DNA of 52,353 nucleotides from Desulfobacterales bacterium. Lineage in GTDB: Bacteria > Desulfobacterota > Desulfobacteria > Desulfobacterales > C00003060. Below the pieces are notes generated by a model. It had not been told where the DNA came from and did not search any database. It worked only from the letters and a program-made list of their open reading frames with translations. The position numbers and the translations under genes were made by a program. The first letter of the stretch is position 1. Every line of letters starts with the position of its first letter. Location: the NCBI GenBank assembly GCA_023129535.1, contig JAGMBW010000116.1:1-52353 (forward strand), given 5' to 3'. Of the stretch, positions 750 to 48,953 are shown piece by piece.

Positions 750-3029
750 TCAAATTAACGTTTCCCGCAAGGCATTAGCCGCTACCACCATATTGTGCAA
801 AGCGGCGCGCACCTCGGGCCAGCCACGCGTCTTCAGTCCGCAGTCGGGATTGACCCACAAACGTTCAGGCCGAAAGACGTTGAGGGCTTTGCGCAACAGC
901 GCTTTTATTTCATCCACGGAAGGCACTCGCGGACTGTGGATGTCGTATATGCCCGGTCCGATCTCATTGGGGTATTGGAACCGGACAAAGGCATTTAGCA
1001 GTTCCATGTCTGAGCGCGATGCCTCTATGGAGATGACATCTGCGTCAAGGGCCGCAATCGCCTCGATGATGTCATTGAACTCCGAATAGCACATATGCGT
1101 GTGGATTTGCGTATCGTCTCGCACACCAGACGAGGCAAGAAGGAACACATCGATGGCCCATTTGAGATATTCCGGCCATTCATGCCTGCACAGTGGCAAC
1201 CCCTCCCGCAAGGCGGGTTCATCGATCTGGATGATGCGGATGCCGGCTGCCTCCAGGTCGGCGGCCTCATCACGGAGGGCCAGTGCGATCTGATACGCTG
1301 TCTCCCGACGTGGCTGGTCATCACGGACAAAAGACCACTGCAGTATAGTGATCGGGCCGGTGAGCATGCCCTTTAGCGGCCGGGTCGTCAACGACTGGGC
1401 GTACTTGATCCAATGGACTGTCATCGGCTCGCCACGCCTGACGTCGCCATAAATTACCGGAGGCTTGATGCAACGTGTGCCATAGCTCTGAACCCATCCA
1501 TTTTGCGTGAAGGCGATACCCTCTAATTGTTCCCCGAAATACTCCACCATGTCATTGCGCTCGAACTCGCCGTGAACGAGCACGTCCAGTCCAATTTCCT
1601 CCTGGAACCGGACGGCCTTTTCGATCTCCTCCTTGACGAAGGCTTCGTACCTTCCGGCGGGCCACTCTCCTTTTCTAAAGGCTGCGCGCGCCTTCCGGAC
1701 TTCCGCGGTTTGAGGAAATGAGCCGATGGTCGTGGTAGGAAGCAGCGGCAAATTCAGTCTGGCTCTTTGGATTTCCCGCCGGACACGGAATGGGCTTTTC
1801 CGCTTAAGCATCTTTTCATCCACATTGGCGACCCGGTCCTTGACCTGCGAATTATGAATTCGGCTGGACCGCCTCCGGCGTTCAGCCCAGGCACTGCTTT
1901 CCGCAATCGCCTCCGCAATCGCTCCACGTCCGTCGTTGACAGCGCGCGTGAGCATGACTATTTCTCCAAGCTTCTGGCGAGCGAAGGCCATCCATCCTTT
2001 CAGTTCTTCGTCCAATGTATCTTCGAGTTCCAGGTCGATCGGGCAGTGAAGAAGCGAGCAGGACGGCCCGATAAGGATGCGGTCAGGGCCTACCCTGGCT
2101 ACCGCCTTTTCAATCAGTTCCAGTGTGCTATCCAGATTCGTCCGCCAGACATTGCGGCCGTCGATCACGCCAAGCGAGAGGATTGAGTTTTCTGAAACCT
2201 GACGCACAGCCCGGTCGAGCTGGTGCGGTGCGCGAATAAGGTCCAGGTGGAGCACCGCCACGGGCATCCGCAACGCTGGTACAAGGTTCTCGCGCAGGTC
2301 TCCGAAGTAGGTCGCGAGGCAGATCTTGAGCTTATTCGTGGCCCCATTCAGACGGCCATACGCCATATCAAAGGCCGCTAATGCATTCTGATGCAGGTCA
2401 AGGGCAAGCACTGGCTCGTCGATCTGGACCCACTCGGCGCCGGAGTCCATGAGCCTGTAAAGGACATCCTCGTAGACGGGCAGCAAACCGTCAAGCAGGG
2501 TGAGGGGGTCCAGCTCTTCTTCACGGCTCTTGCCGAGAAGCAGGAACGAAACGGGCCCCAGGAGGACCGGACGCGTCCGGATGCCAAGCGCCCAGGCTTC
2601 TTTGAACTCATCCATGGGTTTGGTCGAAGCGAGCCGGAATTTCTGTCCGATTTCGAACTCGGGAACAATAAAGTGGTAGTTGCTATCGAACCATTTCGTC
2701 ATTTCCATTGCGGGGACTTCATCTGATCCACGTGCCATCGCGAAATAGGTGGCCAGGTCGACACTCTCGGCCCGCCAGCCGAAGCGTGCCGGGACCGCTC
2801 CTACCATCGCCGCCGTGTCGAGCACCTGGTCATAAAGTGAAAAGTCATTCGAAGGAATGTGTTCGATTCCGAGATCCTGCTGGAGTTTCCAGTGCTGTTG
2901 GCGCAACGCTCTTGCGGTGGATTCCAGTTCCTCCGGACCAATTTTATCCGCCCAGAAACTTTCAACGGCTCGCTTCAGTTCACGTTTTGTTCCGATTCGG
3001 GGAAAGCCCAGATTGGTTGCAATTGCCAT
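750..3029 (-). CDS. metE: Cobalamin-independent methionine synthase (5-methyltetrahydropteroyltriglutamate-homocysteine S-methyltransferase)
   Basis: N-terminus MAIATNLGFPRIGTKRELKRAVESFW is typical of MetE, as are the ~760-aa two-domain length and the C-terminal HTHMCYSEFNDII zinc-site region. The ATG at 3029 is preceded by AAGGAAGG. The track start at 3068 is a TTG with no RBS. Confidence 0.93.
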   Translation of the reverse strand: MAIATNLGFPRIGTKRELKRAVESFWADKIGPEELESTARALRQQHWKLQQDLGIEHIPSNDFSLYDQVLDTAAMVGAVPARFGWRAESVDLATYFAMARGSDEVPAMEMTKWFDSNYHFIVPEFEIGQKFRLASTKPMDEFKEAWALGIRTRPVLLGPVSFLLLGKSREEELDPLTLLDGLLPVYEDVLYRLMDSGAEWVQIDEPVLALDLHQNALAAFDMAYGRLNGATNKLKICLATYFGDLRENLVPALRMPVAVLHLDLIRAPHQLDRAVRQVSENSILSLGVIDGRNVWRTNLDSTLELIEKAVARVGPDRILIGPSCSLLHCPIDLELEDTLDEELKGWMAFARQKLGEIVMLTRAVNDGRGAIAEAIAESSAWAERRRRSSRIHNSQVKDRVANVDEKMLKRKSPFRVRREIQRARLNLPLLPTTTIGSFPQTAEVRKARAAFRKGEWPAGRYEAFVKEEIEKAVRFQEEIGLDVLVHGEFERNDMVEYFGEQLEGIAFTQNGWVQSYGTRCIKPPVIYGDVRRGEPMTVHWIKYAQSLTTRPLKGMLTGPITILQWSFVRDDQPRRETAYQIALALRDEAADLEAAGIRIIQIDEPALREGLPLCRHEWPEYLKWAIDVFLLASSGVRDDTQIHTHMCYSEFNDIIEAIAALDADVISIEASRSDMELLNAFVRFQYPNEIGPGIYDIHSPRVPSVDEIKALLRKALNVFRPERLWVNPDCGLKTRGWPEVRAALHNMVVAANALRETLI

Positions 3030-3097
3030 GACGTATTGCCTTCCTTTATTAAAGAATACGTTTGTCAAGAGAAAAGGGACGGCAAGGCAGTGTGGTG

Positions 3098-18397: not shown

Positions 18398-18634
18398 ATG
18401 TGTACTTCCGTAAATGAACAGTATGTGATAGACGACAAAGGTAATCCCACCGCGGTAATCCTTCCCATAAAGGATTTTGAAAAGATCCTTGCCATTCTAC
18501 AGGAAGTGGAAGACCACAAGGAAACAAAAATACTTTCACAATCTGTAGAATTCAAAAAATTGGTCAAAAAGGGATTAGAGGACATCAAAAAAGACAGAAT
18601 CAAGCCCTGGAAGGAAGTCTGGAATGAGCTATGA
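18398..18634 (+). CDS. Type II antitoxin (Phd/YefM-like N-terminus)
   Basis: 78 aa. The ATG at 18398 follows AAGGAG. Contains PTAVILPIKDFEKILAIL. Overlaps the toxin gene by 11 nt. Confidence 0.7.
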   Translation: MCTSVNEQYVIDDKGNPTAVILPIKDFEKILAILQEVEDHKETKILSQSVEFKKLVKKGLEDIKKDRIKPWKEVWNEL

Positions 18635-18971
18635 GGCTTATTTGACTGAGACCTTCCAGAAGTCCGTAAAAATCCCGAGAAAGAAATACCGTAGTGTCAA
18701 AGACGACCTGTCAGATACGATCCAAATCTTGGAGCAAGAGCCGACTATGGGAGATCCGATTCCTGGCTGGAACAAGGAGATATGGAAAATAAAGGTCGCA
18801 AGCTCTGATGTCAGGAAGGGAAAACGGGGTGGCTTCCGATTGATCTACCTCTGGAGGGCTGGAGAACTTAGGATTTATTTTTTGGTGGCATATTTTAAGG
18901 GAGAAAAGGTCGATATTTCTAAGAGAGAGATAGAGGAGTTGCTCAAAAAGCTGAATCAGGAATTGGCGTAA
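18624..18971 (+). CDS. RelE/ParE-superfamily type II toxin
   Basis: 115 aa. KGKRGGFRLIYLW..IYFLVAYFKGEKVDIS is the typical RelE/HigB-like core. Confidence 0.8.
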   Translation: MSYEAYLTETFQKSVKIPRKKYRSVKDDLSDTIQILEQEPTMGDPIPGWNKEIWKIKVASSDVRKGKRGGFRLIYLWRAGELRIYFLVAYFKGEKVDISKREIEELLKKLNQELA

Positions 18972-19103: not shown

Positions 19104-19769
19104 CTAAACTTTTTCCTCTTGTCCGTAGATCGTTGATAGTTGATATGGCCAGAACTGGCATAGAGCGGTCTGGTTGACATTTATGTGTAAACTATTTAAT
19201 TTCGGATTGCCGAGTTGGAAAGCCGGGCATTTGATTTGTGTGATGCATGTGCGCTTGTAATACATTGACATCACTAATTTATTACCATTCCACTCTATGA
19301 TCTGTTGCACGCAAAACGAAATTAAAACGTTGACACTTAGCCGTCTTTGTACATTACCCAATTGGTCTGATCGACAACGATATGGGGACAGCAGGAACTT
19401 TTTGTACATGCGGTAATACTGAATCACCTTCTTCACATACTTTCTTGTTTCCTTCGGGACTTTTAGCTCCTTGCTTACGACATGCGGGCCGGCATTATAG
19501 GCTATCAGGGAGCGTTTCAAGGAGCCAAATTCATCTATATGGCTTCTGAGTAGCCGTGTGCCGCCAAAGATGTTTGCTTTGGGGTCAAACGGATCGAGAA
19601 TACCAATGGCCTTAGCAGTTTCCGGCATGATCTGCATCAATTCACAGGTACCCACCCTATAAACAGAGAGTAATAGAGGGTCAGGGCTCAACATTTGACA
19701 CTTTCGTTGAATGTTGAGACCTGACCCTTTGTCTTTTTCTGCGAACCCGCCCTCTGCCTTCATATCCAA
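19104..19769 (-). CDS. Lytic transglycosylase (SLT) domain ORF, probably degenerate
   Basis: ELMQIMPETAKAIG...AYNAGP are SLT motifs II-IV. No catalytic E-S motif is visible upstream (the position reads ML). No ATG+RBS start. The last ~100 aa look non-protein-like. AT-rich context. Confidence 0.45.
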   Translation of the reverse strand: MDMKAEGGFAEKDKGSGLNIQRKCQMLSPDPLLLSVYRVGTCELMQIMPETAKAIGILDPFDPKANIFGGTRLLRSHIDEFGSLKRSLIAYNAGPHVVSKELKVPKETRKYVKKVIQYYRMYKKFLLSPYRCRSDQLGNVQRRLSVNVLISFCVQQIIEWNGNKLVMSMYYKRTCITQIKCPAFQLGNPKLNSLHINVNQTALCQFWPYQLSTIYGQEEKV

Positions 19770-27710: not shown

Positions 27711-28376
27711 TTACCTCTCTGAGTATACCAATAATATCTCAATCCTACGATTGGCCGCCTTCCCCTCCTCTGTGTCGTTGGGCATGATGTAATTATACTC
27801 ACCGTAACCGGCTGCGCCCAGGAATCTCTTATCGGACAGGGAAGGCAGCAAGATTTTGTGCTTCAGGAAATACTTGGTTATGTAAACTGCACGTGCTGTA
27901 GATAGCTCCCAGTTAGAAGGATAACGTTTTGAATAAATTGGAGTCGTGTCTGTGTGTCCTTCGATATAGATTTGATCAAACAACCTGTTTTCATAGTAAG
28001 TCCGGTGCAGTATTTCCCCTAAGGCGTCAAGGAATTTGAAGCTTTCCATTCTGTCGGGTGGGATTTCCGCCTTGCCCAAAGGAAACAACAAGGCACTGCT
28101 AAATCGCAACTTTTGGTGGTCGCCAATGGTTTCACACTGAATAGTATCCTTTGGTATCTTTCCTGTTGTCTCCATATCCTTAATCATTTGGACAAGGCGG
28201 CCCTGACGGTTCTTGATCTCGATTCTCTTTAGCGCATCACTAAGAAAAAAGCTTATGTGTTGTATAATCATGAAAAGTAGCAAAATCATCAGAGTGGCGA
28301 TGATGACATCAACCAGGGCCGGCCAGATATTCGGCATGGTGTTGCGGCTTTGATAGTATACATTTTTACGGTTCAT
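27711..28376 (-). CDS. MotB/OmpA-family stator subunit (ZorB-like)
   Basis: TM helix with a conserved Asp (IWPALVDVIIATLMILLLF). C-terminal OmpA-like peptidoglycan-binding domain IEGHTDTTP...NWELSTARA...NRRIEILL. The start is uncertain (TTG 28448, ATG 28376 or ATG 28337). Confidence 0.8.
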   Translation of the reverse strand: MNRKNVYYQSRNTMPNIWPALVDVIIATLMILLLFMIIQHISFFLSDALKRIEIKNRQGRLVQMIKDMETTGKIPKDTIQCETIGDHQKLRFSSALLFPLGKAEIPPDRMESFKFLDALGEILHRTYYENRLFDQIYIEGHTDTTPIYSKRYPSNWELSTARAVYITKYFLKHKILLPSLSDKRFLGAAGYGEYNYIMPNDTEEGKAANRRIEILLVYSER

Positions 28377-28423
28377 TGTTGAAATTTTTTGAAAGATAAC
28401 TAAGCATTTGGGGTCAAATGGTA

Positions 28424-30211
28424 TTAATAGCGTTTGAACGTAAACCAATTTAAAAAGGCCTTGAGTTTCCCTTTTTTCTCCACCTTAGATATCAAATTGG
28501 AATCAAAAGCATGACCCAATAAACTGAGTAAAGCCTGGTTAACTTCATTGGAATTTTTTAACGTGTTTTCGGTGTGTTTCAGCGTTTTTTCCATAACGGC
28601 AACGGAAGGAATGATTTTCTGGCTGAAAAAATCTCGCTGTTCTGAAGAAGCGGCTTCGAAACATTGCACAGTTCTTTCGATCAATTGTTCGCTGGATTGA
28701 TTATGGGCTTCGGTCTGATTCTCGATGGCCACTGTAAGTTTAGGCAGGACCTGTGAAAAAATATCATCCAGCTTGGTCGTAATCTTCGTGACCTGATTGT
28801 CGAATCGGGTTTCAAGACGGCCCTGTTGTGCGGCTATCTCCTCGCGTACACCCTCAAACCCTCGAGTGAGGTGGTCATTAAACACCTGATGGATCTCTTT
28901 TAACGAGTCCACGACCTTGACGTGTGATTCCGTAACAGCTTTCAGGTTTTCTATGTTAAGTTTTTGCTGGTCTTTGAGCATTGATTCGGTTTTATCCAGC
29001 AATTGTATCATTTTGTTGTTGGTATTGGTCAGAAAGCTGTTGTGATCCGCTTCTATACGCTGAATTTGTTGGTTCTGGAAATCAACCGCGTGAATGATAT
29101 TGCTCGAAGCCTCAAGCAGGCCTTCCTTAAAGTTTTTATCCATGTTTTGAATCGAAGTCTCTAGGCGGGCATATAGATTCTCTATTTCGCTTTTTTGCCC
29201 TCCCAACCCGTCAAATAGCTTTTCAATGGATGCCTGGCTGTTTTCCAAATGCCGTGCAAGGCCCTGCGAAAGTTTTACAAACGTCTCGTTTGCGTCAGAG
29301 ATCTTCAGGTAGTGGGCTTCAAGATCTGTCTGGGAGCGTGTGATCCCATCAACCGTGTGATAAAGCGTGTCGGCCATCCGGCTATGGACGTCCTGGTTGT
29401 CTGTAATCAGCGTCATGAGATCCGCGATACCGCTGGAGATTTCCACAAGTCCCGACCCGGACAGTTTCATCACATTTGCGATGGTGTCCAGACTGTCTTC
29501 CACTTTTTTGGGTGTAAAGAAAGGGATGAGAATATTCAGAGTAAAGCTCTCGAATTCCTCACCAAATGTTTCTTTGGCCCGCTCGTACACATGATTGACA
29601 AAGGAGAGCAGCAGGAATGCGAAAAAGCCGCACAAAGTGGAGGAAAATGCCGTTTCCATAAACCCCAGGCTGCCGAGCATATCTGAAATAATCCGCTGAA
29701 ATGCGTCGCGAGAAACCACACTGCCCATTCCCATCAGAATTCCACGCAGGTTGATGACCGCCTGGCTCAACCCCAGTATCGTCCCGATCAAACCGAGAAT
29801 GATCAAATTACCAGCAATATACCGGCCCCAGGATGAACGATATATATATGCCGCTTTTAGTGCGTCGGCAATAATCTCAACGTTCCCGTCCAGGCGTTTA
29901 ACCGCCTGTATGTCCTTGACCGCCTGTATGGTGAAACTTTTCCTGGAAAGCCCGGCATTCTCGATCTTGTCTAGCAACTCCCTGGGTTGTTGTTTGTCCG
30001 CCTCAAGAAATAGCTCGCGTATTTCCTTTAAGGCTCGGTTTTCTCGCCAGATCCGTATACGCCCCCAAACCACGATTAGGGTGCCTCCGGCAAAAAGAAG
30101 GATGATCAACCCGTTGACGATACAGGAAATAGCGGTACCGAAAAAGAAATGATATAGATATTCAGTCGGAATTTCCGGGTTGTCATTGAATAGCTGCAAC
30201 AAAAAATTCAT
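28424..30211 (-). CDS. MotA/ExbB/TolQ-family proton-channel protein with a ~350-aa C-terminal helical tail (ZorA-like architecture)
   Basis: TM helices flank LIILGLIGTILGLSQA (the GLxGTxxG channel motif) and LCGFFAFLLLSF. Residues ~240-595 are continuous heptad-like helix with no TM. Confidence 0.75.
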   Translation of the reverse strand: MNFLLQLFNDNPEIPTEYLYHFFFGTAISCIVNGLIILLFAGGTLIVVWGRIRIWRENRALKEIRELFLEADKQQPRELLDKIENAGLSRKSFTIQAVKDIQAVKRLDGNVEIIADALKAAYIYRSSWGRYIAGNLIILGLIGTILGLSQAVINLRGILMGMGSVVSRDAFQRIISDMLGSLGFMETAFSSTLCGFFAFLLLSFVNHVYERAKETFGEEFESFTLNILIPFFTPKKVEDSLDTIANVMKLSGSGLVEISSGIADLMTLITDNQDVHSRMADTLYHTVDGITRSQTDLEAHYLKISDANETFVKLSQGLARHLENSQASIEKLFDGLGGQKSEIENLYARLETSIQNMDKNFKEGLLEASSNIIHAVDFQNQQIQRIEADHNSFLTNTNNKMIQLLDKTESMLKDQQKLNIENLKAVTESHVKVVDSLKEIHQVFNDHLTRGFEGVREEIAAQQGRLETRFDNQVTKITTKLDDIFSQVLPKLTVAIENQTEAHNQSSEQLIERTVQCFEAASSEQRDFFSQKIIPSVAVMEKTLKHTENTLKNSNEVNQALLSLLGHAFDSNLISKVEKKGKLKAFLNWFTFKRY

Positions 30212-30394: not shown

Positions 30395-32191
30395 CTATAC
30401 TGATAAACCCTTTAGCTTATATTTATACAGAATTCGGAAAACAGACAGGACTCTGGGAGCCATCCAGACGCGCGCATCATAGGAAAGATCCGGCGTCCGG
30501 CTGCAGTTCATTTTAATGTGGATCCGATCCGAAATCCAGCGCGGCAGAAACCACATGGCCCTCACGTTGGGTGTATAAGACAATAAAACAGTTTCATCAG
30601 GAGAAAGACGCGGCAAACCGGATTTCCCCATTTGCCACAGCGTGTGTGCCCGGCTAAACTTGTTGTTTTCCCAACGTATGGAAAAAATACTCAGGGGCTC
30701 TGATCCCGTGTTTTTCAATCGGATCGTAAGGCAAGTACTTGTCCGGCTCCAGCACCACTTTCGGCTATCGAAAATGGAATCACATCTACTTTCGACAGTG
30801 CCGGCATGAACCGGGATCACATCTTTTATCACCAGTCCGTTATTCGCTCTGGCTCGGATCGTGATGGCTGTACTGATTGTTTTTCCGGGCGGCAAAGACT
30901 TTGATTCGAAAGTAAGCTGGGCTGCGTTAGGTGCCAGGATCGCCCCCGGGGCCACCACAATCCCCCTTAACGCCTCGGGAATGTCCACCTCGATATTGGA
31001 TACAGGCTGCATGGTATCGCTCTGGAAAAACTCCAATGTTTCCGTCTCCCGGCTTCCATAAGACACACGGCGCCAGTCAAGAGTCATTTTCCGGGGATAC
31101 CGGATCAAACGAACCAGATGCATTTTTACCTTCAGCCGGTGGCATCTGCGGTTGGCCACCCTGGAATCGGTCAAAATCAGGGCACTCAGGTTTTCAGCCT
31201 GAATGGGCCGCATTCTGGACGTATCGACACGCAGCGTAATTTGGTGTATTTGGCTTACCTTGATGTTCTTAATTTCTTCTTCATGTGAAATTCCGTTTCC
31301 GATACATTTCACTTTTAGCGTGCCGATCCCGTTCACGCTCAAGGGGATGACCAGTTTGAATGATTCACCCCATGACAAAGCCCGATCAACATTTATGGTA
31401 TTTTCTTTTAATTCCGAGCACACCAGATCACGGTTCCATACGAACTCCACCGGAATTTTTATCTCCCGCGTCTCTCCGTCTTCGCTTTTTAGCACCAGGA
31501 CCTCCATCTTATCCTGATCCGGCAGTTCCGGCCTTGAAACGGAAAAGCCCAGTTGAACCGGTCTGCCTGGTCGTATCTGAATGCTTTCAAAGTCCGGCAG
31601 GAGCCAGCCAGGGCAAGCGGCAACCCGATATTTTTTTAGCTCGATTGCTGATTTACGATGTCTGTCGTCCGGTTTGCCTCCGGGGAAAAACGTATAGTAT
31701 TCTTTCTGTGCCATGTTGGGATCGAATACTTGACAAACGCCTACGCCCGGAAGAACAGATATCGCTTCCCGTCGGTTATCGATGAGCGTTCGCTTCCCGT
31801 CGACGATTCTGTATACAAATTCCACTTCCGACTCGGTCAAGTCCATCCAGATTTGATAGGTTGCATCGGCCCCGGGCATCATTTCCCAGTTTTGGGAGAC
31901 GTCAGCCCCCCACCGGTTGAATTCTCCCTCTATTTTTGCAGAATGAAGCTCTTTTCTATCGATAACAAATTTATAAAAATGCTCTTGGCCAACCCGGATT
32001 CGAAACGGCGGCAATGGATCGAAATCCGTGTCCCCCCCTTCACGCCGGGCTTCATGTTCCACAAGTTGATAACAGGCGTTCTGATCTGTCAGTGCCAGCC
32101 GAGTACCCTCAACCTGTTGCCCTCCCCCGGCTTTCAGGGCCTGGGCAGCTTCCAAGTAAAGCCGTATGTGCTCTAATTTCGACAGGTCCAT
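30395..32191 (-). CDS. Cytoplasmic CBM48/AMPK-beta-like domain protein followed by several Ig-like beta-sandwich domains
   Basis: FRIRVGQEHFYKFVIDRKELHSAKIEGEFNRWG...WEMMPG..YQIWMDL..EFVYRIVDGKRTLID fits the GxFNxW..YKF.vDG pattern. No signal peptide. RBS AGGA. Confidence 0.5.
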   Translation of the reverse strand: MDLSKLEHIRLYLEAAQALKAGGGQQVEGTRLALTDQNACYQLVEHEARREGGDTDFDPLPPFRIRVGQEHFYKFVIDRKELHSAKIEGEFNRWGADVSQNWEMMPGADATYQIWMDLTESEVEFVYRIVDGKRTLIDNRREAISVLPGVGVCQVFDPNMAQKEYYTFFPGGKPDDRHRKSAIELKKYRVAACPGWLLPDFESIQIRPGRPVQLGFSVSRPELPDQDKMEVLVLKSEDGETREIKIPVEFVWNRDLVCSELKENTINVDRALSWGESFKLVIPLSVNGIGTLKVKCIGNGISHEEEIKNIKVSQIHQITLRVDTSRMRPIQAENLSALILTDSRVANRRCHRLKVKMHLVRLIRYPRKMTLDWRRVSYGSRETETLEFFQSDTMQPVSNIEVDIPEALRGIVVAPGAILAPNAAQLTFESKSLPPGKTISTAITIRARANNGLVIKDVIPVHAGTVESRCDSIFDSRKWCWSRTSTCLTIRLKNTGSEPLSIFSIRWENNKFSRAHTLWQMGKSGLPRLSPDETVLLSYTPNVRAMWFLPRWISDRIHIKMNCSRTPDLSYDARVWMAPRVLSVFRILYKYKLKGLSV

Positions 32192-35896: not shown

Positions 35897-37396
35897 CTAC
35901 AGATCATCCAAATTAAACTTAATTTTCATCGGATCTTTTTTTTCTTCTGTCTTTGGAAGCGGCCCGTTTCTTTGTCGGCTGCTGGCTTTAGCGCTTTCGG
36001 AAACGGTGCGGTCGGATTTTTCCGGGGGCGATAATGCTGTTGCCGTAGATACCCTGTTTTGAAGAAACACGACTGCCTTCCTGACTTCCTCCACTCTTTC
36101 CAATACCGTCATAACCGCTGGGTCTTCTTTTTCGCCAATAACTAAAGTCTTACGGAGCTTCTGTGTTTTTTTGTCCAACCTATTAATATCTTCATTTAAT
36201 GCCTCCATCATTATTTTCTGGTTTTCCAATAGTGATTCAATTTTCTGGTTACCAGTTGAAGTGTCTCCAACTGAATCCAGGATGTGTCTAAAGTTTTCAG
36301 ACTGTGTCTCTAAATCTCTCAATACAGAATTTATATTAGAAGGTATATGCTGGTTCAATTGTTCAGAAACCTTTCTGATTATATCATCACGGTATCGTGA
36401 TAGATTATTCCTGCTATCGCTTTCATGTTTTCGGAAGGCGAAAAAAATCTGAAGGATAATAAAAAGAAACACTACTCCTAAAATGATTACTACTCCTAAA
36501 AGTAGTCGCACCGTTAAAAATGATGTCGTACCGCCATTTGGGGAAAATCCAGAAGTCTTGTTCTTCAAGCTTTCTATTTCAGATTTAATATCATCAATTT
36601 TTTTGGGCAGATCTTGTGCAAACTTTTCATCAATAGTTGACTTCAAGCTTGTAATGCTTTTGGACAAAGTGTCTGGTTTTGTCGCAAGGGCAGTGCGCTC
36701 AATATCAATGTTTTCTTCTTTCTTAACAATTTCAGTGGTAAGCGACTTGCCTTTTCCTGGGGATCGGATTATTCTTTTAAATTTATCAGGTAATGCGCTG
36801 ATAATATCACTTGCCGGCAATTCATTTTCTTCCGCTGAAGTTACACGAACCTTTGTTAATTTATCTTGAATGCCCAGTTTCCTGACATTAATTATAAAAA
36901 ACCATCTCTTATTCAACTCAAAAAGGGTTCCATGGTGGCCTTCAATATACTCAAAAAGTTTACACCATGTTTTATCTCTCCAATCGCCATCAACATCAGC
37001 AGTTCCTATTGCCCTCTGTAAAGCCTTTATGTTGTCTTCATTGACAACAGAACCGATCAGTGCAGATTTTAAATTTTTAATTCCATTTTCATCTTTCGAC
37101 TTAACTTTTTTACTTGGACTTGTAATATAAAACTTCACTGCTACTTCTAAATCAGGAGGGCCATTCTTGAACCCGTTAAGGATGTTAATAATCCGGTACT
37201 CCTTAGCATCGAAGGACTCCTTGTCTAGTTGAAACGCATCGTACAAAAGCAATTTGACTTCCTCGCTGTTATCGGCGCATATAGCTTTGAATAGATACAA
37301 TAGAAAAAAAAGGCATATAACGATCGTCAACAGTAACAGAAAATTGATTCGTTTATGCCTCATAGATCTTCGCTGCCTTTGAAATTGCATATCCAT
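35897..37396 (-). CDS. Bitopic/two-TM membrane protein with a PG_binding_1-like motif and a coiled-coil C-terminus
   Basis: Start taken at ATG 37396 (MDMQFQRQRR). TM1 INFLLLLTIVICLFFLLYLF and TM2 LLLGVVIILGVVFLFIILQIFFAF. Between them, IKALQRAIGTADVDGDWRDKTWCKLFEY resembles the LQ..L...vDG.fG..T peptidoglycan-binding motif. Confidence 0.55.
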   Translation of the reverse strand: MDMQFQRQRRSMRHKRINFLLLLTIVICLFFLLYLFKAICADNSEEVKLLLYDAFQLDKESFDAKEYRIINILNGFKNGPPDLEVAVKFYITSPSKKVKSKDENGIKNLKSALIGSVVNEDNIKALQRAIGTADVDGDWRDKTWCKLFEYIEGHHGTLFELNKRWFFIINVRKLGIQDKLTKVRVTSAEENELPASDIISALPDKFKRIIRSPGKGKSLTTEIVKKEENIDIERTALATKPDTLSKSITSLKSTIDEKFAQDLPKKIDDIKSEIESLKNKTSGFSPNGGTTSFLTVRLLLGVVIILGVVFLFIILQIFFAFRKHESDSRNNLSRYRDDIIRKVSEQLNQHIPSNINSVLRDLETQSENFRHILDSVGDTSTGNQKIESLLENQKIMMEALNEDINRLDKKTQKLRKTLVIGEKEDPAVMTVLERVEEVRKAVVFLQNRVSTATALSPPEKSDRTVSESAKASSRQRNGPLPKTEEKKDPMKIKFNLDDL

Positions 37397-37460
37397 AGCT
37401 GTGTTTATTTCCTTCACTTTTAATGCTTGATCATAAAGCTTCACTGAATTCGTCCCCAGT

Positions 37461-38555
37461 TCAATGGTAAAGTCTCGGCAAAGGGAACTCAACCACATGA
37501 GCAATTACAAGGCCTTGGTTTACCACTGCAAACCGAGCCTTTGCCAGACCATAATCCACTTTTTGGATATTGAGTTGCAAGTTACAGGGATTCTGCCGTT
37601 TGAACCCTTTTTCATCCAGGGAGGCAGTAAACCTTGCCATCGGAAAAAAACGCCCCTTATCTTTGAACCAGCAAGCCAAAGGGACGTCAAGATGTCGCGC
37701 GTCATCGAGTATGTCAAATACCTGTATCATGCTTTTGCCCGGCAGATCCGAAGGACCCAAAAGCGGGAAAAAATCATTCTCACCGGCGATCAGGCCCAGT
37801 GTTGTCTCCATGTTGAAATCCACCCGTGGCATGTCTCGCCGATTCATATACTCCTGAAAGTAGAAGTAACCTGAAGCGGCAGGGGTGTGCTGCGAATGGT
37901 TAGGCAAATCGAGAGGGTCGGTATCTGATAATGCCTGCCATCCAACCAGTCTGGCCTCCAATCTGTTGGGTCTCTTGATGACGGAAAATCGGAAAGCGCT
38001 TCCCGTGTTGGACGACGTTTTGATGGTAACGGCTATGGAGTCTGTTTCAGGCAAATCGATGATCTGTATCAGCCTTTGGGATTCAAACAGTTTTCTGAAA
38101 AATAATGCGAATGCCTCCGTGCACACTTCCACGACACAGCCGGGCAAGACCGTTGCCAGGGCGCGGATAATAGCCCGGCTTGCCTGTGGTTCCCATGCCA
38201 TGGGAACAAGACATACCATGGGCATTGACAGACGCAATCGGCTGAAAATTTGATTATTTTTCTTAAAAAAGAATCGCCAGATCGTTTCAAGCAGTTCATT
38301 CTCCCCGGCAATAAGCGGCATGATATGGTGGAATTGATGCAAACTAAACGTCTCATCCTCTTCAAGCTGATTTTCGTAAAACTGTCGATGCTCCGGGCTC
38401 TCTTTGCCGTTCGCTTCCGGTTTCAGGATGACATGAAACGGGACAGAAGCGGTCTGGTCGTATTCACTGCCACCATCAGTATAAACTGCCATCTCTTCGC
38501 CCGTTAAATCCAAAACCGCTGACGGGCGATAGTAATTAACCATGCCTTTTTGCAT
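37461..38555 (-). CDS. Hypothetical protein (~365 aa), translationally overlapped with the kinase-Hsp70 gene
   Basis: The track ORF runs to 38837, but its first ~94 aa overlap the upstream gene in another frame. ATG 38555 (MQKGMVNYYRPSAVLDLTGEEMAVY) gives a 20-nt overlap. Family not recognised. Confidence 0.55.
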   Translation of the reverse strand: MQKGMVNYYRPSAVLDLTGEEMAVYTDGGSEYDQTASVPFHVILKPEANGKESPEHRQFYENQLEEDETFSLHQFHHIMPLIAGENELLETIWRFFFKKNNQIFSRLRLSMPMVCLVPMAWEPQASRAIIRALATVLPGCVVEVCTEAFALFFRKLFESQRLIQIIDLPETDSIAVTIKTSSNTGSAFRFSVIKRPNRLEARLVGWQALSDTDPLDLPNHSQHTPAASGYFYFQEYMNRRDMPRVDFNMETTLGLIAGENDFFPLLGPSDLPGKSMIQVFDILDDARHLDVPLACWFKDKGRFFPMARFTASLDEKGFKRQNPCNLQLNIQKVDYGLAKARFAVVNQGLVIAHVVEFPLPRLYH

Positions 38556-42439: not shown

Positions 42440-43095
42440 CAGCATAGAAACCCTTACCCTCCGGGTAAGGTCAGAGTTCAGTTGGCTTTGCCTTCTGAAC
42501 AGCTCATCTGTTACATCCACACCTGAGTTGTCCCCACAACGTCAGGAAAGGAGTAACAAATGAGCCATTTTCGGAAATTATCACATACAATATGGCATTG
42601 CCAGTACCATATAGTCTGGACCCCGAAATACAGATATCGAGTGCTTTCAGGGGAAATAGCTGATGAAGTCGATGGCTGTATTCGGGTATTTTCGGAACAA
42701 CAAAAGTGCGAGATAGACGAAATGAATATTCAAGTAGACCACGTGCACCTTCTTGTAATGATACCGCCGAAGATATCGGTTTCGAACTATGTTGGAACGG
42801 TGAAGGGCCGGACAGCGATACGAGTATTGAATAGGTTCCGGCACCTAAAACAGAAACCCTATTGGGGTAATCATTTTTGGACCAAAGGGTACTGTGTCGA
42901 TACAGTAGGCCTTGATTCAGAAATGATTCGCAAGTACATAAAGTATCAAGAAGCCAAAGAACGCAGAGAAGAACAACAGCGAAGCTTGTTCTAATTCGTC
43001 TACAGGGGACAACTCAACCTTGCCTCCTCTGGGGGCAAGGCAAATTACCCCCTTCCAGGGATTATATCAAAGCCACGTCCTCTGGGCGTGGATCT
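42440..43095 (+). mobile_element. IS200/IS605-family insertion sequence (approximate limits)
   Basis: A single Y1-transposase gene flanked by subterminal hairpins: CCTTACCCTCCGGGTAAGG (42452-42470), CCTTGCCTCCTCTGGGGGCAAGG (43019-43040) and CCACGTCCTCTGGGCGTGG (43073-43091). The 5' UTR GAGTTGTCCCC is complementary to GGGGACAACTC after the stop. The ~650-bp size is IS200-like. Confidence 0.7.
42560..42994 (+). CDS. tnpA: IS200/IS605-family Y1 (HUH) transposase TnpA
   Basis: 144 aa. WHCQYHIVWTPKYRYRVL, HUH motif DHVHLLV, catalytic Tyr region WTKGYCVDTVG. RBS AAAGGAG. Confidence 0.92.
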   Translation: MSHFRKLSHTIWHCQYHIVWTPKYRYRVLSGEIADEVDGCIRVFSEQQKCEIDEMNIQVDHVHLLVMIPPKISVSNYVGTVKGRTAIRVLNRFRHLKQKPYWGNHFWTKGYCVDTVGLDSEMIRKYIKYQEAKERREEQQRSLF

Positions 43096-43136: not shown

Positions 43137-43367
43137 TCAATCCAGCAGAAGTCGGCCGACTTCGTCGATATCCACTAGACCTCTGTTTTCCAGACGGATC
43201 TTCAATTTTACAGGCCCGCCCTGGCCAATATATATCGGTCCGGTATGCTCTATCCTGTCTTGAAGGAAGACTCGGATCGATTTCAAACGGGCTCCGCAAA
43301 ACCCACAGTACTTGTCGCCGGCGGCAGGATCAACACTGTACCCGCTGCAGCAGTAATTACATTTCAT
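43137..43367 (-). CDS. Zinc-ribbon ORF (76 aa), possibly truncated by the IS200 insertion
   Basis: CNYCCSG...KYCGFCG, then the beginning of an Ig-like strand pattern (PVKLKIRLENRGLVDIDEV). The stop lies at or next to the inferred IS right end. Confidence 0.45.
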   Translation of the reverse strand: MKCNYCCSGYSVDPAAGDKYCGFCGARLKSIRVFLQDRIEHTGPIYIGQGGPVKLKIRLENRGLVDIDEVGRLLLD

Positions 43368-47223: not shown

Positions 47224-47580
47224 TTAACCGCCCAAAAGCCAAAACGCCATATAAGTGACACCGAGAGCGATGATGAAAGATATTATGCCCGAAACGACTC
47301 TAGGTCCCTGTCCCCATGAACTCTCATAAGCCGCTTTGGGGCCCAAGGTGCCTTGTCTAACCACCCTGGTAAATCTCATGGTCCTCACTCGAAAACAGAT
47401 ATAAAAAGCAAACAAGCCCAAAAGAACACCGACGACTATGGCGACTGTCAAGTTGACAGGGCTCGGGTTGCTGAAGTCTACCACGGCTTCCACGATGCCG
47501 GCGCATGCTAAGAAAAATGTAAGGAAGCTGCCTATACCGACTGCCCAACTCATGCTAGATGGTGCATTGTTAAAATTCAT
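47224..47580 (-). CDS. Small three-TM membrane protein
   Basis: ATG 47580 overlaps the upstream stop (ATGA coupling). Hydrophobic helices WAVGIGSFLTFFLACAGIV, LTVAIVVGVLLGLFAFYICF and VVSGIISFIIALGVTYMAFWLL. Confidence 0.6.
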   Translation of the reverse strand: MNFNNAPSSMSWAVGIGSFLTFFLACAGIVEAVVDFSNPSPVNLTVAIVVGVLLGLFAFYICFRVRTMRFTRVVRQGTLGPKAAYESSWGQGPRVVSGIISFIIALGVTYMAFWLLGG

Positions 47581-48953
47581 GAGACACACTCCATTTGAAA
47601 ATTATCGTTGGTGTTAAGTTCCGCCTCTATTCTTCTTAAGAAAAATATTTTCCCCCTGGAAATGACCGGCTGAGAGCAAATTTTCCCGGCTTTATTCTGA
47701 ACTTTTCCAGAACGGGAATTAATAAAAGTTTCGCGAATATTGCTTGCTTCAATATCGTAACGGACAAGGTCTCGACAGGTATCTTCGATTGTCCACAAGC
47801 TATTGTTAAGCGATGTAAAGGGTACGATTCGATCCACCTTGACCGGGGTTAAATAGTGCCCCATGCGCTTACCGGACGTCTTAATCGCGCCGAACTGATT
47901 GCTGCCGTCTATAAATAAAAGACAATTCTCACCCTGGCTGTTTATTACAGCGGTCAGGGGACCTGACTGTCCCAGTTGAACATCCCTGGTCCAATATCGG
48001 AGACGCTCTTTGAGTGGTTTGTCGCTGTTATGTTTAATCTCCAGAATGTCGAAAATATCGCCTACCTTACTCGCATTACAGACCCACAAATATATGCTGT
48101 TCGGGGTGCGCGTCTGGTAAAACTGGGCGGGTCCAATGAGTTTCAATCCTGAAACGGGAAAAAGGATTTCTTTTACTGATTGCCCTTGCGACCCGATTGT
48201 TAAAAGCCTTGCCTTTGGACCGGAATCAGACCCTTTGTAAGCGATAAAAACAGAGTAACTTTCTTCTGTCGCTATTATAAAAGGCTCTGAAACTATGAAA
48301 GCCTTGGCTAATGACAGATTATTCTTAATAAAACGTGATGCTTCGATTTCCCATCCATCCCAGACCGGATCCGCATTGTCTATACTTTTGTTATAAACAA
48401 GATCAAACTCCCTAAATTCAATAAAATTACCGTTTCGGATAATAAGCGGAACCCTAATTCCCGACCTTTTTTTATCGTTCCTTAAAGGTAAAACGCACGG
48501 TAGGCGAAAACATTCTTCATCATCGTTTTGGGCCTCCCAAAGTGTTAGATATTTTTGAAGAAAGCCGTTAAAAATGATTACGGCTCTTTGCCAAATCAAC
48601 AAAGCCCACGGAGACGATTGTAAATTCGTAATAATGCCGAGCAGCGGCCCCATGTTGATGTTGAACAAAATTCGGGATGTGTGTGTAACGCTTTCATCGA
48701 AATCAGGGTTGATGTTAAAATAACAGTACTGTCCGGAAGAACTCAAAAAGAAAGGATTGGATGCCACCTCCGCCCCTAAAATCCGCTCTACGTCTTTAAC
48801 AGGCCATTGTAATTCGGCGGAGCTTTTAGAAAATTTACTTGTCGGCGGCCCCCATTCAGTGAGATCAAGCTTCTGCCCACAGTGCACACAATATCGGCTG
48901 CTGTTTTTGTTTTGATGGCCGCATTGGCATTTTAGTTTGTAATTTATATACAT
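47577..48953 (-). CDS. Zinc-ribbon protein with a beta-rich (propeller-like?) body
   Basis: CQCGHQNKNSSRYCVHCG at the N-terminus. RBS TGGAGG. The rest is not recognised. Confidence 0.6.
   Translation of the reverse strand: MYINYKLKCQCGHQNKNSSRYCVHCGQKLDLTEWGPPTSKFSKSSAELQWPVKDVERILGAEVASNPFFLSSSGQYCYFNINPDFDESVTHTSRILFNINMGPLLGIITNLQSSPWALLIWQRAVIIFNGFLQKYLTLWEAQNDDEECFRLPCVLPLRNDKKRSGIRVPLIIRNGNFIEFREFDLVYNKSIDNADPVWDGWEIEASRFIKNNLSLAKAFIVSEPFIIATEESYSVFIAYKGSDSGPKARLLTIGSQGQSVKEILFPVSGLKLIGPAQFYQTRTPNSIYLWVCNASKVGDIFDILEIKHNSDKPLKERLRYWTRDVQLGQSGPLTAVINSQGENCLLFIDGSNQFGAIKTSGKRMGHYLTPVKVDRIVPFTSLNNSLWTIEDTCRDLVRYDIEASNIRETFINSRSGKVQNKAGKICSQPVISRGKIFFLRRIEAELNTNDNFQMECVS

Follow-up and report, generated by a model that had tools for sequence, protein, structure and literature searches.

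A ZorAB-like tailed stator pair forms the end of a conserved tubulin/Hsp70 gene cluster in a Desulfobacterales bacterium

The window analysed here (the whole stretch of 52,353 nucleotides of contig JAGMBW010000116.1, assembly GCA_023129535.1, from a Desulfobacterales bacterium) carries a gene cluster of ~24 kb whose members all lie on the minus strand, and whose last two genes in transcription order (here called A and B, Table 1) encode a tailed, peptidoglycan-anchored stator with three transmembrane (TM) segments, of the ZorAB type known from the Zorya anti-phage system. The hydropathy profile of the 595-amino acid (aa) protein A places TM segments at residues 19-54, 130-155 and 187-206, and the LGLIGTILGL motif, which a first-pass annotation of the sequence had pointed out together with MotA/ExbB-type helices, was recovered in the second of them (TM2, residues 139-148). 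Within the family alignment G140, L141, G143, T144 and G147 of TM2 are invariant across the relatives, and the TM3 motif M-E-T187-A-F-S190-x-T192-L-C-G is kept (GLxGT and TAFSxT being channel motifs); both the fold and the polar TM residues of this membrane domain (GLxGT144, T187/S190/T192) fit the MotA/ExbB/TolQ superfamily. The same annotation had described a long, helical and heptad-like tail, a description borne out by AlphaFold2 predictions (full-length monomer with 8 sequences: predicted local distance difference test score, pLDDT, 53, with weak fold matches; residues 1-245 with a 29-sequence alignment: pLDDT 86, predicted TM-score 0.76), by composition and by periodicity: A is all-helical in both models, the tail is predicted to consist of helices 237-335, 341-484 and 490-573 separated by two short breaks, it contains 2 prolines in 360 residues, and its amphipathic periodicity of 3.5-3.67 residues stands out from that of shuffled tails (z = 7.6-13) in all 8 of 8 homologues.

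The open reading frame (ORF) listed for gene B (27711-28448) begins with TTG, encodes 245 aa and overlaps A; its first in-frame ATG (28376, 47 nt past the stop of A) yields 221 aa, and this start is the probable one since the resulting size agrees with that of the homologues (215-223 aa). As had been read from the sequence at first pass, B is a MotB-type protein of ~220 aa with an aspartate in its TM helix (PALVDVII) and an OmpA-like domain: the aspartate (D23 when numbered from the ATG at 28376) occurs without exception in 8 homologues, the most distant of them 26% identical, the Pfam OmpA model matches with an E-value of 1.9e-10 (exceeding its cut-off), and the peptidoglycan-binding signature EGHTD / NWELSxARA / NRRIEI is kept in homologues. 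The PADLOC ZorB1 model aligns over the full length from TM helix to C-terminus (1e-22), and ZorB of Shewanella (8VVN_B) over positions 28-240 of the 245-aa form, TM helix included (~3e-11). Flagellar MotB, MotS and PomB score more strongly than the latter (E ~1e-19), in line with their being the closest in sequence to the peptidoglycan-binding domain of B, but they align with that domain only; the alignments that reach into the TM helix are those of the ZorB models and of 8VVN_B.

In order to place A among the stator families we used two profiles of its membrane domain, one built from the close family only (A2) and the other from 29 sequences of a wider clade (A5). The close family itself is small (13 clusters among 5.8 billion proteins), and a scan for its motifs in 185,579 species genomes yielded Desulfobacter latus alone, owing to search patterns that are specific to this close family. 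Against 1.84 billion cluster representatives A2 retrieved 1530 matches at E <= 0.001, of which 272 reached E <= 1e-10; almost all of these proteins are 300-780 aa long and have the matched domain at their N-terminus. Among 90 relatives sampled from the 150 best, PADLOC ZorA models matched 68 (best E 1e-15 to 1e-21, values far weaker than true ZorA members would give) and Pfam MotA_ExbB matched 47. Searched against the sequences of the PDB, A5 found ZorA of Shewanella (8VVN, 1.9e-7, aligned from TM1 up to where the tail begins) and of E. coli (1e-5 to 1e-4), and gave no significant score for TolQ and ExbB (0.1-0.2) or MotA (9.7); as the profile covers the membrane domain only, this result is not driven by coiled-coil composition. 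A word-indexed protein search with A5 returned short MotA_ExbB fragments only, and tblastn of the membrane domain against plasmids gave no match. The 50 best PDB matches of the 1-245 model in Foldseek were exclusively ExbB, TolQ and ZorA (probability 1.0), with TM-scores of up to 0.67 for ExbB and of 0.47-0.55 for ZorA, and neither MotA nor PomA was among them. ExbBD and TolQR thus share with A its fold, the three TM segments and the GLxGT and TxxG motifs, but they have neither an OmpA-type domain nor a long tail, and work with TonB/TolA partners, of which none was found among the scanned ORFs; MotA differs from A by its four TM segments and torque-generating cytoplasmic domain. Because of the partner subunit and the tail, the pair is clearly not ExbB/TolQ. 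We regard as established the architecture of A and B and the homology of A to the clade comprising ZorA, ExbB and TolQ, and the likeness to a ZorAB core that had been noticed at first pass for this MotAB-like unit is supported from both sides (8VVN ZorA at 1.9e-7 for the A5 profile, ZorB1 at 1e-22 for B).

Table 1. Features of the A-B locus and of its surroundings in the window (sizes refer to the encoded proteins).
Feature	Position	Strand	Remarks
Exported vWA-domain protein, 758 aa	48989-51265	minus	first gene of the cluster; DKSAS motif of the metal ion-dependent adhesion site (DxSxS)
458-aa protein	47577-48953	minus	N-terminal zinc ribbon
121-aa membrane protein	47224-47589	minus	~110-aa genes at equal position in orthologous loci and in Deinococcus
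Tubulin-like protein (FtsZl1, Pfam Tubulin_2), 1253 aa	43404-47165	minus	GGTGSG signature intact
76-aa zinc-ribbon protein	43137-43367	minus	84-86-aa gene at equal position in orthologous loci
IS200-type Y1 transposase	42560-42994	plus	PF01797, 1.2e-40
Kinase-Hsp70 fusion, 1250 aa	38536-42288	minus	Pkinase (3.2e-27), middle region, HSP70 ATPase (2.9e-12)
Conserved ~364-aa protein	37461-38555	minus	overlaps the end of the Hsp70 gene, likewise in orthologous loci; no Pfam match
535-aa membrane protein with coiled-coil region	35897-37504	minus	weak coiled-coil-type matches only; homologue in D. latus
GrpE-like paralogue, 552 aa	34183-35841	minus	PF01025, 1.3e-7
GrpE-like protein, 559 aa	32221-33900	minus	C-terminal GrpE domain; PF01025, 2.7e-7, exceeds cut-off
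598-aa beta-rich protein	30395-32191	minus	fold without known match; directly upstream of A
Gene A, ZorA-like stator protein, 595 aa	28424-30211	minus	3 TM segments, helical membrane-proximal domain, ~360-aa cytoplasmic helical tail
Gene B, ZorB/MotB-like protein, 221 aa	27711-28376	minus	TM helix with invariant Asp23, OmpA-type peptidoglycan-binding domain
Exported SNase with ComEA-like helix-hairpin-helix	25622-26521	minus	nuclease; clear signal peptide; variable neighbour, not core
SLT lytic transglycosylase domain ORF	19104-19769	minus	
RelE-like toxin ORF	18624-18971	plus	weak match
Gene for cobalamin-independent methionine synthase (MetE)	750-3068	minus	
Cobalamin riboswitch	66-348	minus	68 bits

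The cluster opens with a gene for an exported vWA-domain protein, upstream of which there is no long ORF on the minus strand; its match to VWA_2 (9e-5, 23.5 bits) falls just below the Pfam cut-off of 27, and orthologous loci carry VWA_2 proteins as well. The tubulin-like protein is a confident member of PF13809 (6.8e-37, 128 bits, cut-off 27). Between this half of the cluster (tubulin and zinc-ribbon protein) and the half that begins with the kinase-Hsp70 fusion lies the transposase gene, at a point where orthologous loci are almost contiguous. The kinase domain of the fusion (residues ~165-205) has kept HGDLKPQN and is missing the aspartate of DFG (IKLAVPALIEF), and its orthologues miss other catalytic residues (HLGLNPYS in D. 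latus, HGN in L010 and L011); to judge by these motifs, the whole family probably carries a pseudokinase or atypical kinase here. The start of the ~364-aa protein that follows was set by the length of its homologues. The two GrpE-like proteins are paralogues from a recent tandem duplication, almost identical in their N- and C-terminal stretches; copies in other lineages number one or two and vary in length (491-752 aa). The 598-aa protein, for which neither the single sequence nor a profile (PDB) found any match in Pfam, NCBIfam or the PDB, accompanies A-B in every locus of the close family (phmmer presence table). No Walker A (P-loop) motif was found in any cluster protein, nor any GTPase match in Pfam. 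As for the neighbours that the first-pass annotation had listed, the GrpE-like, Hsp70, tubulin-like and SNase genes are upheld by Pfam; a CBM48/Ig gene is not (no match), and the MCE assignment comes down to an 18-bit PqiB match, far below cut-off.

Conservation of this gene order was examined in five A-B lineages (the window, D. latus or L001, L002, L003 and L006/7). Three lineages (D. latus and the metagenomic L002 and L006), whose A homologues are 36-48% identical to that of the window, share the succession of kinase-Hsp70, ~360-aa protein, ~550-aa protein, GrpE-like protein, ~600-aa protein, A and B, and the block of Hsp70, GrpE and 600-aa protein is present in every lineage whose contig extends far enough. 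The survey of neighbours of the closest homologues that had been proposed at first pass thus returned this block, upstream of A-B, as the recurrent context. The other end of the cluster is documented by two loci (L010, L011) with tubulin orthologues 40-42% identical to that of the window, in which the order is vWA, ~445 aa, ~113 aa, Tubulin_2, ~85 aa, kinase-Hsp70, ~350 aa and ~500 aa. One of these orthologous tubulin-Hsp70 clusters (L010, 17836-18578) also holds a toxin-antitoxin pair (UPF0175 / PIN-like, DUF3368). Within L002 the vWA gene has been relocated to directly after B, a rearrangement that keeps the parts together and therefore argues for one functional unit. We regard this gene linkage, too, as established, and conclude that A-B is the conserved terminal module of a tubulin/Hsp70 cluster and not a free-standing Zorya.

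The genes that follow B are of another kind. Three of the five lineages (window, L003, L006/7) have an SNase gene no more than 1-2 kb from B, on the opposite strand in L006, and next to A-B in D. latus and L002 this gene is missing; an MCE-like lipoprotein gene, separated from B by a gap of 400 nt, is found near it in two of the five (counting the window) and is missing in D. latus and L002. The position of the pair after the GrpE, Hsp70 and tubulin genes, as first described, is therefore a conserved trait, and the MCE-like and SNase genes that had been named alongside are not conserved partners; as a conserved effector, either of them was ruled out by this distribution across lineages. After the SNase gene of the window come genes for an exported 292-aa protein and a DUF1598 protein, both of which recur in L003. 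The genes after B in D. latus encode AAA, DUF2997, DUF3150, SSB, PD-(D/E)XK and UvrD proteins.

At the border between the housekeeping genes and the low-GC (guanine-cytosine) block with the cluster lie an ORF with an SLT lytic transglycosylase domain and another with weak likeness to RelE toxins. The left flank is marked as chromosomal by its housekeeping context (metE and a cobalamin riboswitch, the only Rfam match in the window, which has no tRNA genes); the riboswitch has no bearing on the cluster and is located downstream of the metE stop on the same strand, and so cannot control this gene and probably serves one beyond the start of the window.

More remote relatives of A recur beside similar components. 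On a plasmid of Deinococcus deserti a Tubulin_2 gene is followed by one for a 411-aa A-like protein (scores of 100 bits with A5 and of 41 bits with A2, over the entire membrane domain) and then by one for an OmpA protein; a search with the A-like protein found Deinococcus plasmids only. The supplement of the 2010 study that described FtsZl1 operons, in which the partners are vWA, 'OmpA-like' proteins, kinases and diverged GTPases, the last three frequent and not obligatory, lists for two Deinococcus species (incl. D. radiodurans) FtsZl1, a 'MotA/TolQ/ExbB membrane protein' (411 aa) and OmpA (200 aa), and for cyanobacteria the order vWA, FtsZl1, 'B7' (524-549 aa) and COG1360 MotB (215-230 aa) (PMC2875224). 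We looked up 7 remote ZorA-like representatives, 4 of which had enough flanking DNA. L019 reads A-like, OmpA, further genes, Tubulin_2, 582 aa and Hsp70 (908 aa); L020 reads CHAT-ClpB, A-like, OmpA, ClpB-like, TPR, further genes and Hsp70 (890 aa); L021 reads CHAT-ClpB, caspase, HEAT, A-like, OmpA, TPR, ClpB-like, kinase, further genes, GrpE (weak) and Hsp70 (874 aa); L017/18 follow the order of L021 as far as the kinase and end before the position of its Hsp70. Genes for Tubulin_2 and for unusually large Hsp70 proteins are rare in genomes; with Deinococcus included, one or both lie within 10 kb in 4 of the 6 informative remote contexts (L008, L015, L017/18, L019, L020, L021). Plasmid-borne Tubulin_2 loci adjoin BREX BrxL, WYL, CHAT and caspase genes.

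As a side observation, four of these loci (L017, L018, L020, L021) share a second recurrent ZorAB-like architecture: a CHAT-ClpB fusion (~1350 aa), an A-like protein, OmpA, a TPR protein (~1070 aa) and a ClpB-like AAA+ protein. Caspase, HEAT and kinase-TPR occur as extras in L017/18 and L021, and L020 and L021 also have a large Hsp70, with a weak GrpE before it in L021. This arrangement has the look of a separate conflict-type system not yet described.

Among known systems, ZorAB (E. coli type I, 8QYD; Shewanella type I, 8VVN; PMC11946911, PMC11890865) resembles the pair most closely, with an A subunit of three TM segments whose TM3 continues into the tail, a B subunit composed of an N-terminal TM helix with a conserved aspartate and an OmpA-type domain, a B gene directly after that of A, and the best sequence-profile matches among solved structures. 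In contrast, the tail of ZorA is ~500 aa long in E. coli as compared to ~360-385 aa here, the membrane-proximal domain of E. coli ZorA (with a Ca2+ site, E86/E89) has a beta-hairpin that the purely helical model of A does not show, and the partners in the window are tubulin, Hsp70, GrpE-like and vWA proteins, with none of the Zorya partners ZorC/D, ZorE or ZorF/G detected. The FtsZl1/vWA operons (PMC2875224) resemble the cluster by a vWA gene before a ~1100-1250-aa Tubulin_2 protein and by OmpA-like and Ser/Thr-kinase components, and differ from it in that the latter has no GTPase, a kinase fused to Hsp70, and added GrpE-like genes; the 2010 study took their OmpA-like component for a beta-barrel protein of membrane transport and did not identify its partner as a tailed stator (PMC2875224). 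The GTPase-centric systems, predicted to act in nucleoside triphosphate (NTP)-dependent biological conflict, share tubulin, vWA, HSP70 and GrpE, protein kinase and a frequent catalytic degeneration with the window cluster, but they are built on a core of one or two GAP1/TRAFAC-type GTPases, occur mainly in Firmicutes and Actinobacteria, and are described in a paper that does not mention MotA (PMC7159879), whereas the cluster is without P-loop proteins.

Based on these comparisons we consider it probable that the pair acts as an envelope-anchored motor of the ZorAB type which serves as sensor or transducer of a tubulin/Hsp70 conflict-type system, a role that we propose because the only cytoplasmic partners conserved with it are tubulin, kinase-Hsp70, the GrpE-like proteins and the 598-aa protein. 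By analogy with published ZorAB work, from which we infer stoichiometry (5:2), ion-driven rotation, tail signalling and defence role alike, five A would surround two B in the inner membrane, the ion path would run along Asp23 of B and a ring of Thr and Ser residues in A (T144, T187, S190, T192), and the OmpA-like domain of B would anchor the complex to peptidoglycan, such that ion flow would turn A together with its bundled ~360-residue tails (a long cytoplasmic rod). The motor may in this manner detect an envelope event (a perturbation of peptidoglycan or membrane, as in phage entry) and signal through the tail, which would pass the signal to the NTP-driven cytoplasmic assembly machines (Hsp70/GrpE and tubulin). 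We favour a role of the cluster in defence or conflict, as suggested by the rare and patchy occurrence of the family (13 clusters, one of 185,579 species genomes), a GC content below that of the housekeeping flank, the BREX, WYL, CHAT and caspase genes that adjoin plasmid relatives, a catalytic degeneration of the kinase that differs among orthologues, and component themes like those of the predicted systems of PMC7159879, whose defining GTPase is absent here.

Several observations weigh against this interpretation. The direct scores of A are weak (1.9e-5 against PADLOC ZorA3, with 21.6 bits as the best PADLOC ZorA score; 17.4 bits against NCBIfam antiphage_ZorA_1, whose cut-off is 190), the Pfam scan gave no MotA_ExbB match, and both a phmmer search with A alone and the A2 profile met coiled-coil noise only among PDB sequences; on account of the weak ZorA scores and the missing MotA_ExbB match, the link from A to ZorA is a transitive one. 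In the fold search ExbB and TolQ come out on top, and ZorA is not set apart from ExbB. The membrane-proximal domain is purely helical in the model (pLDDT 86), without the beta-hairpin of ZorA: the monomer is predicted to have no strands at residues 47-129, a region whose alignment to ZorA is too weak to assign Ca2+ ligands, and beta structure in this domain is a hallmark of Zorya proteins (PMC12505986; PMC11946911). Moreover, the core holds no recognisable conserved toxic effector, the kinase looks degenerate, the operon of the window copy may be split or impaired by the IS200-type insertion, and the sample of remote contexts is small (n=6 informative loci).

Whether the locus is a Zorya system in its own right can be judged from its parts. 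It has a ZorA-type A with three TM segments and a long helical tail, and a ZorB-type B directly after it; no soluble partner (ZorC with ZorD, ZorE, or ZorF with ZorG) was detected, and A stays below the curated ZorA threshold. PADLOC gave no match to ZorC, ZorD, ZorE, ZorF or ZorG among the best 25 of the 49 families listed, either in the neighbours or in the 35 other window ORFs of at least 110 aa, and for the ORFs covered by the Pfam scans neither a helicase nor an HNH domain was reported, in agreement with the lack of a ZorC/ZorD/ZorE-like gene remarked upon at the outset. Taken strictly, this lack of ZorC-G and the score (17 vs 190 bits), with the hairpin missing from the model, speak against a new Zorya subtype. 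The first-pass annotation had left a choice between such a subtype and a stator recruited into a larger apparatus; with the 190-bit cut-off missed and no hairpin in the model the former is unlikely, and the conserved block speaks for the latter.

The main rival of the sensor-transducer interpretation is a cytoskeletal or membrane-remodelling apparatus as proposed for FtsZl1 by Makarova and Koonin, in which the stator would supply energy from the proton motive force or a peptidoglycan anchor to a structure that spans the envelope, in the service of a housekeeping or developmental task and not of immunity (much as Tol-Pal or the AglRQS gliding motor do for their partners). The components of FtsZl1 operons are mostly membrane-associated (PMC2875224), the vWA protein of the window is exported, two further membrane proteins are encoded in the cluster, and its core has no conserved nuclease or toxin; however, an extremely patchy distribution, plasmid-borne relatives, the CHAT, caspase and BREX genes beside related Tubulin_2 and stator loci, the toxin-antitoxin and IS insertions tolerated within the cluster, and the fact that the nearest solved sequence relatives are defence proteins weigh against such a task, and we hold this explanation to be unlikely. 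Still less probable appears a scheme in which ZorAB-like sensing activates the exported SNase-helix-hairpin-helix protein (perhaps with the MCE-like lipoprotein) on periplasmic DNA in the manner of a new Zorya subtype, with tubulin and Hsp70 merely adjacent. That known Zorya types end in nucleases (PMC11946911; PMC11890865) and that the SNase gene keeps close to B in three lineages agree with it. Yet the absence of this gene in D. latus and L002, its inverted orientation in L006, the occurrence of the MCE-like gene in one other lineage only and its distance from B, and the Hsp70/GrpE/600-aa block in every lineage with sufficient contig all disagree; furthermore, the signal peptide implies that the SNase is not a Zorya-style cytoplasmic effector.

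An ordinary stator placed here by chance, be it an ExbBD/TolQR transport energiser or one for flagella or gliding, would account for the rank of ExbB and TolQ in the fold search, and this was the refuting case considered at first pass. It is contradicted by the OmpA-type domain of B (unlike ExbD/TolR), the ~360-aa tail of A, profile scores (TolQ/ExbB ~0.1, MotA 9.7) without significance, three TM segments instead of four, the lack of a MotA/PomA fold match, and the context, as no flagellar, gliding, TonB, TolA or Pal domains were reported among the scanned window ORFs or in related loci; we thus deem it highly improbable. A wider generalisation of the sensor-transducer interpretation, doubtful at present, is that ZorAB-like motors are a general, exchangeable envelope-sensing input for chaperone/cytoskeleton immune or cell-suicide systems (Hsp70/GrpE with Tubulin_2; Hsp70 with CHAT-ClpB, with or without caspase), where rotation of the tail would act as a mechanical trigger of Hsp70 cycling, or of tubulin polymerisation at the very place where the envelope is breached.

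To our knowledge, no system other than Zorya has so far been credited with a stator-type motor that converts events at the envelope into an immune response of the cytoplasm, and the known outputs of Zorya are nucleases. The locus of the window and its relatives present a tailed, peptidoglycan-anchored motor tied by gene order to tubulin and Hsp70/GrpE, and in other lineages to CHAT-ClpB and, in part of them, to caspases. The stator type as such is already known, and the co-occurrence of FtsZl1 with OmpA/MotA was tabulated in 2010 (PMC2875224); our literature search found no paper that names these proteins ZorAB-like tailed motors or links such motors to tubulin, Hsp70 or GrpE. The FtsZl1/Tubulin_2 systems, unexplained since 2010, hereby gain a membrane component with a solved structural analogue, for which the aspartate of B and the tail of A offer testable mutants. 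Taken together with the ~1500 ZorA-like sequence clusters, which seem to fall largely outside the three recognised Zorya types, these findings suggest that such motors may feed signals into more machines than Zorya.

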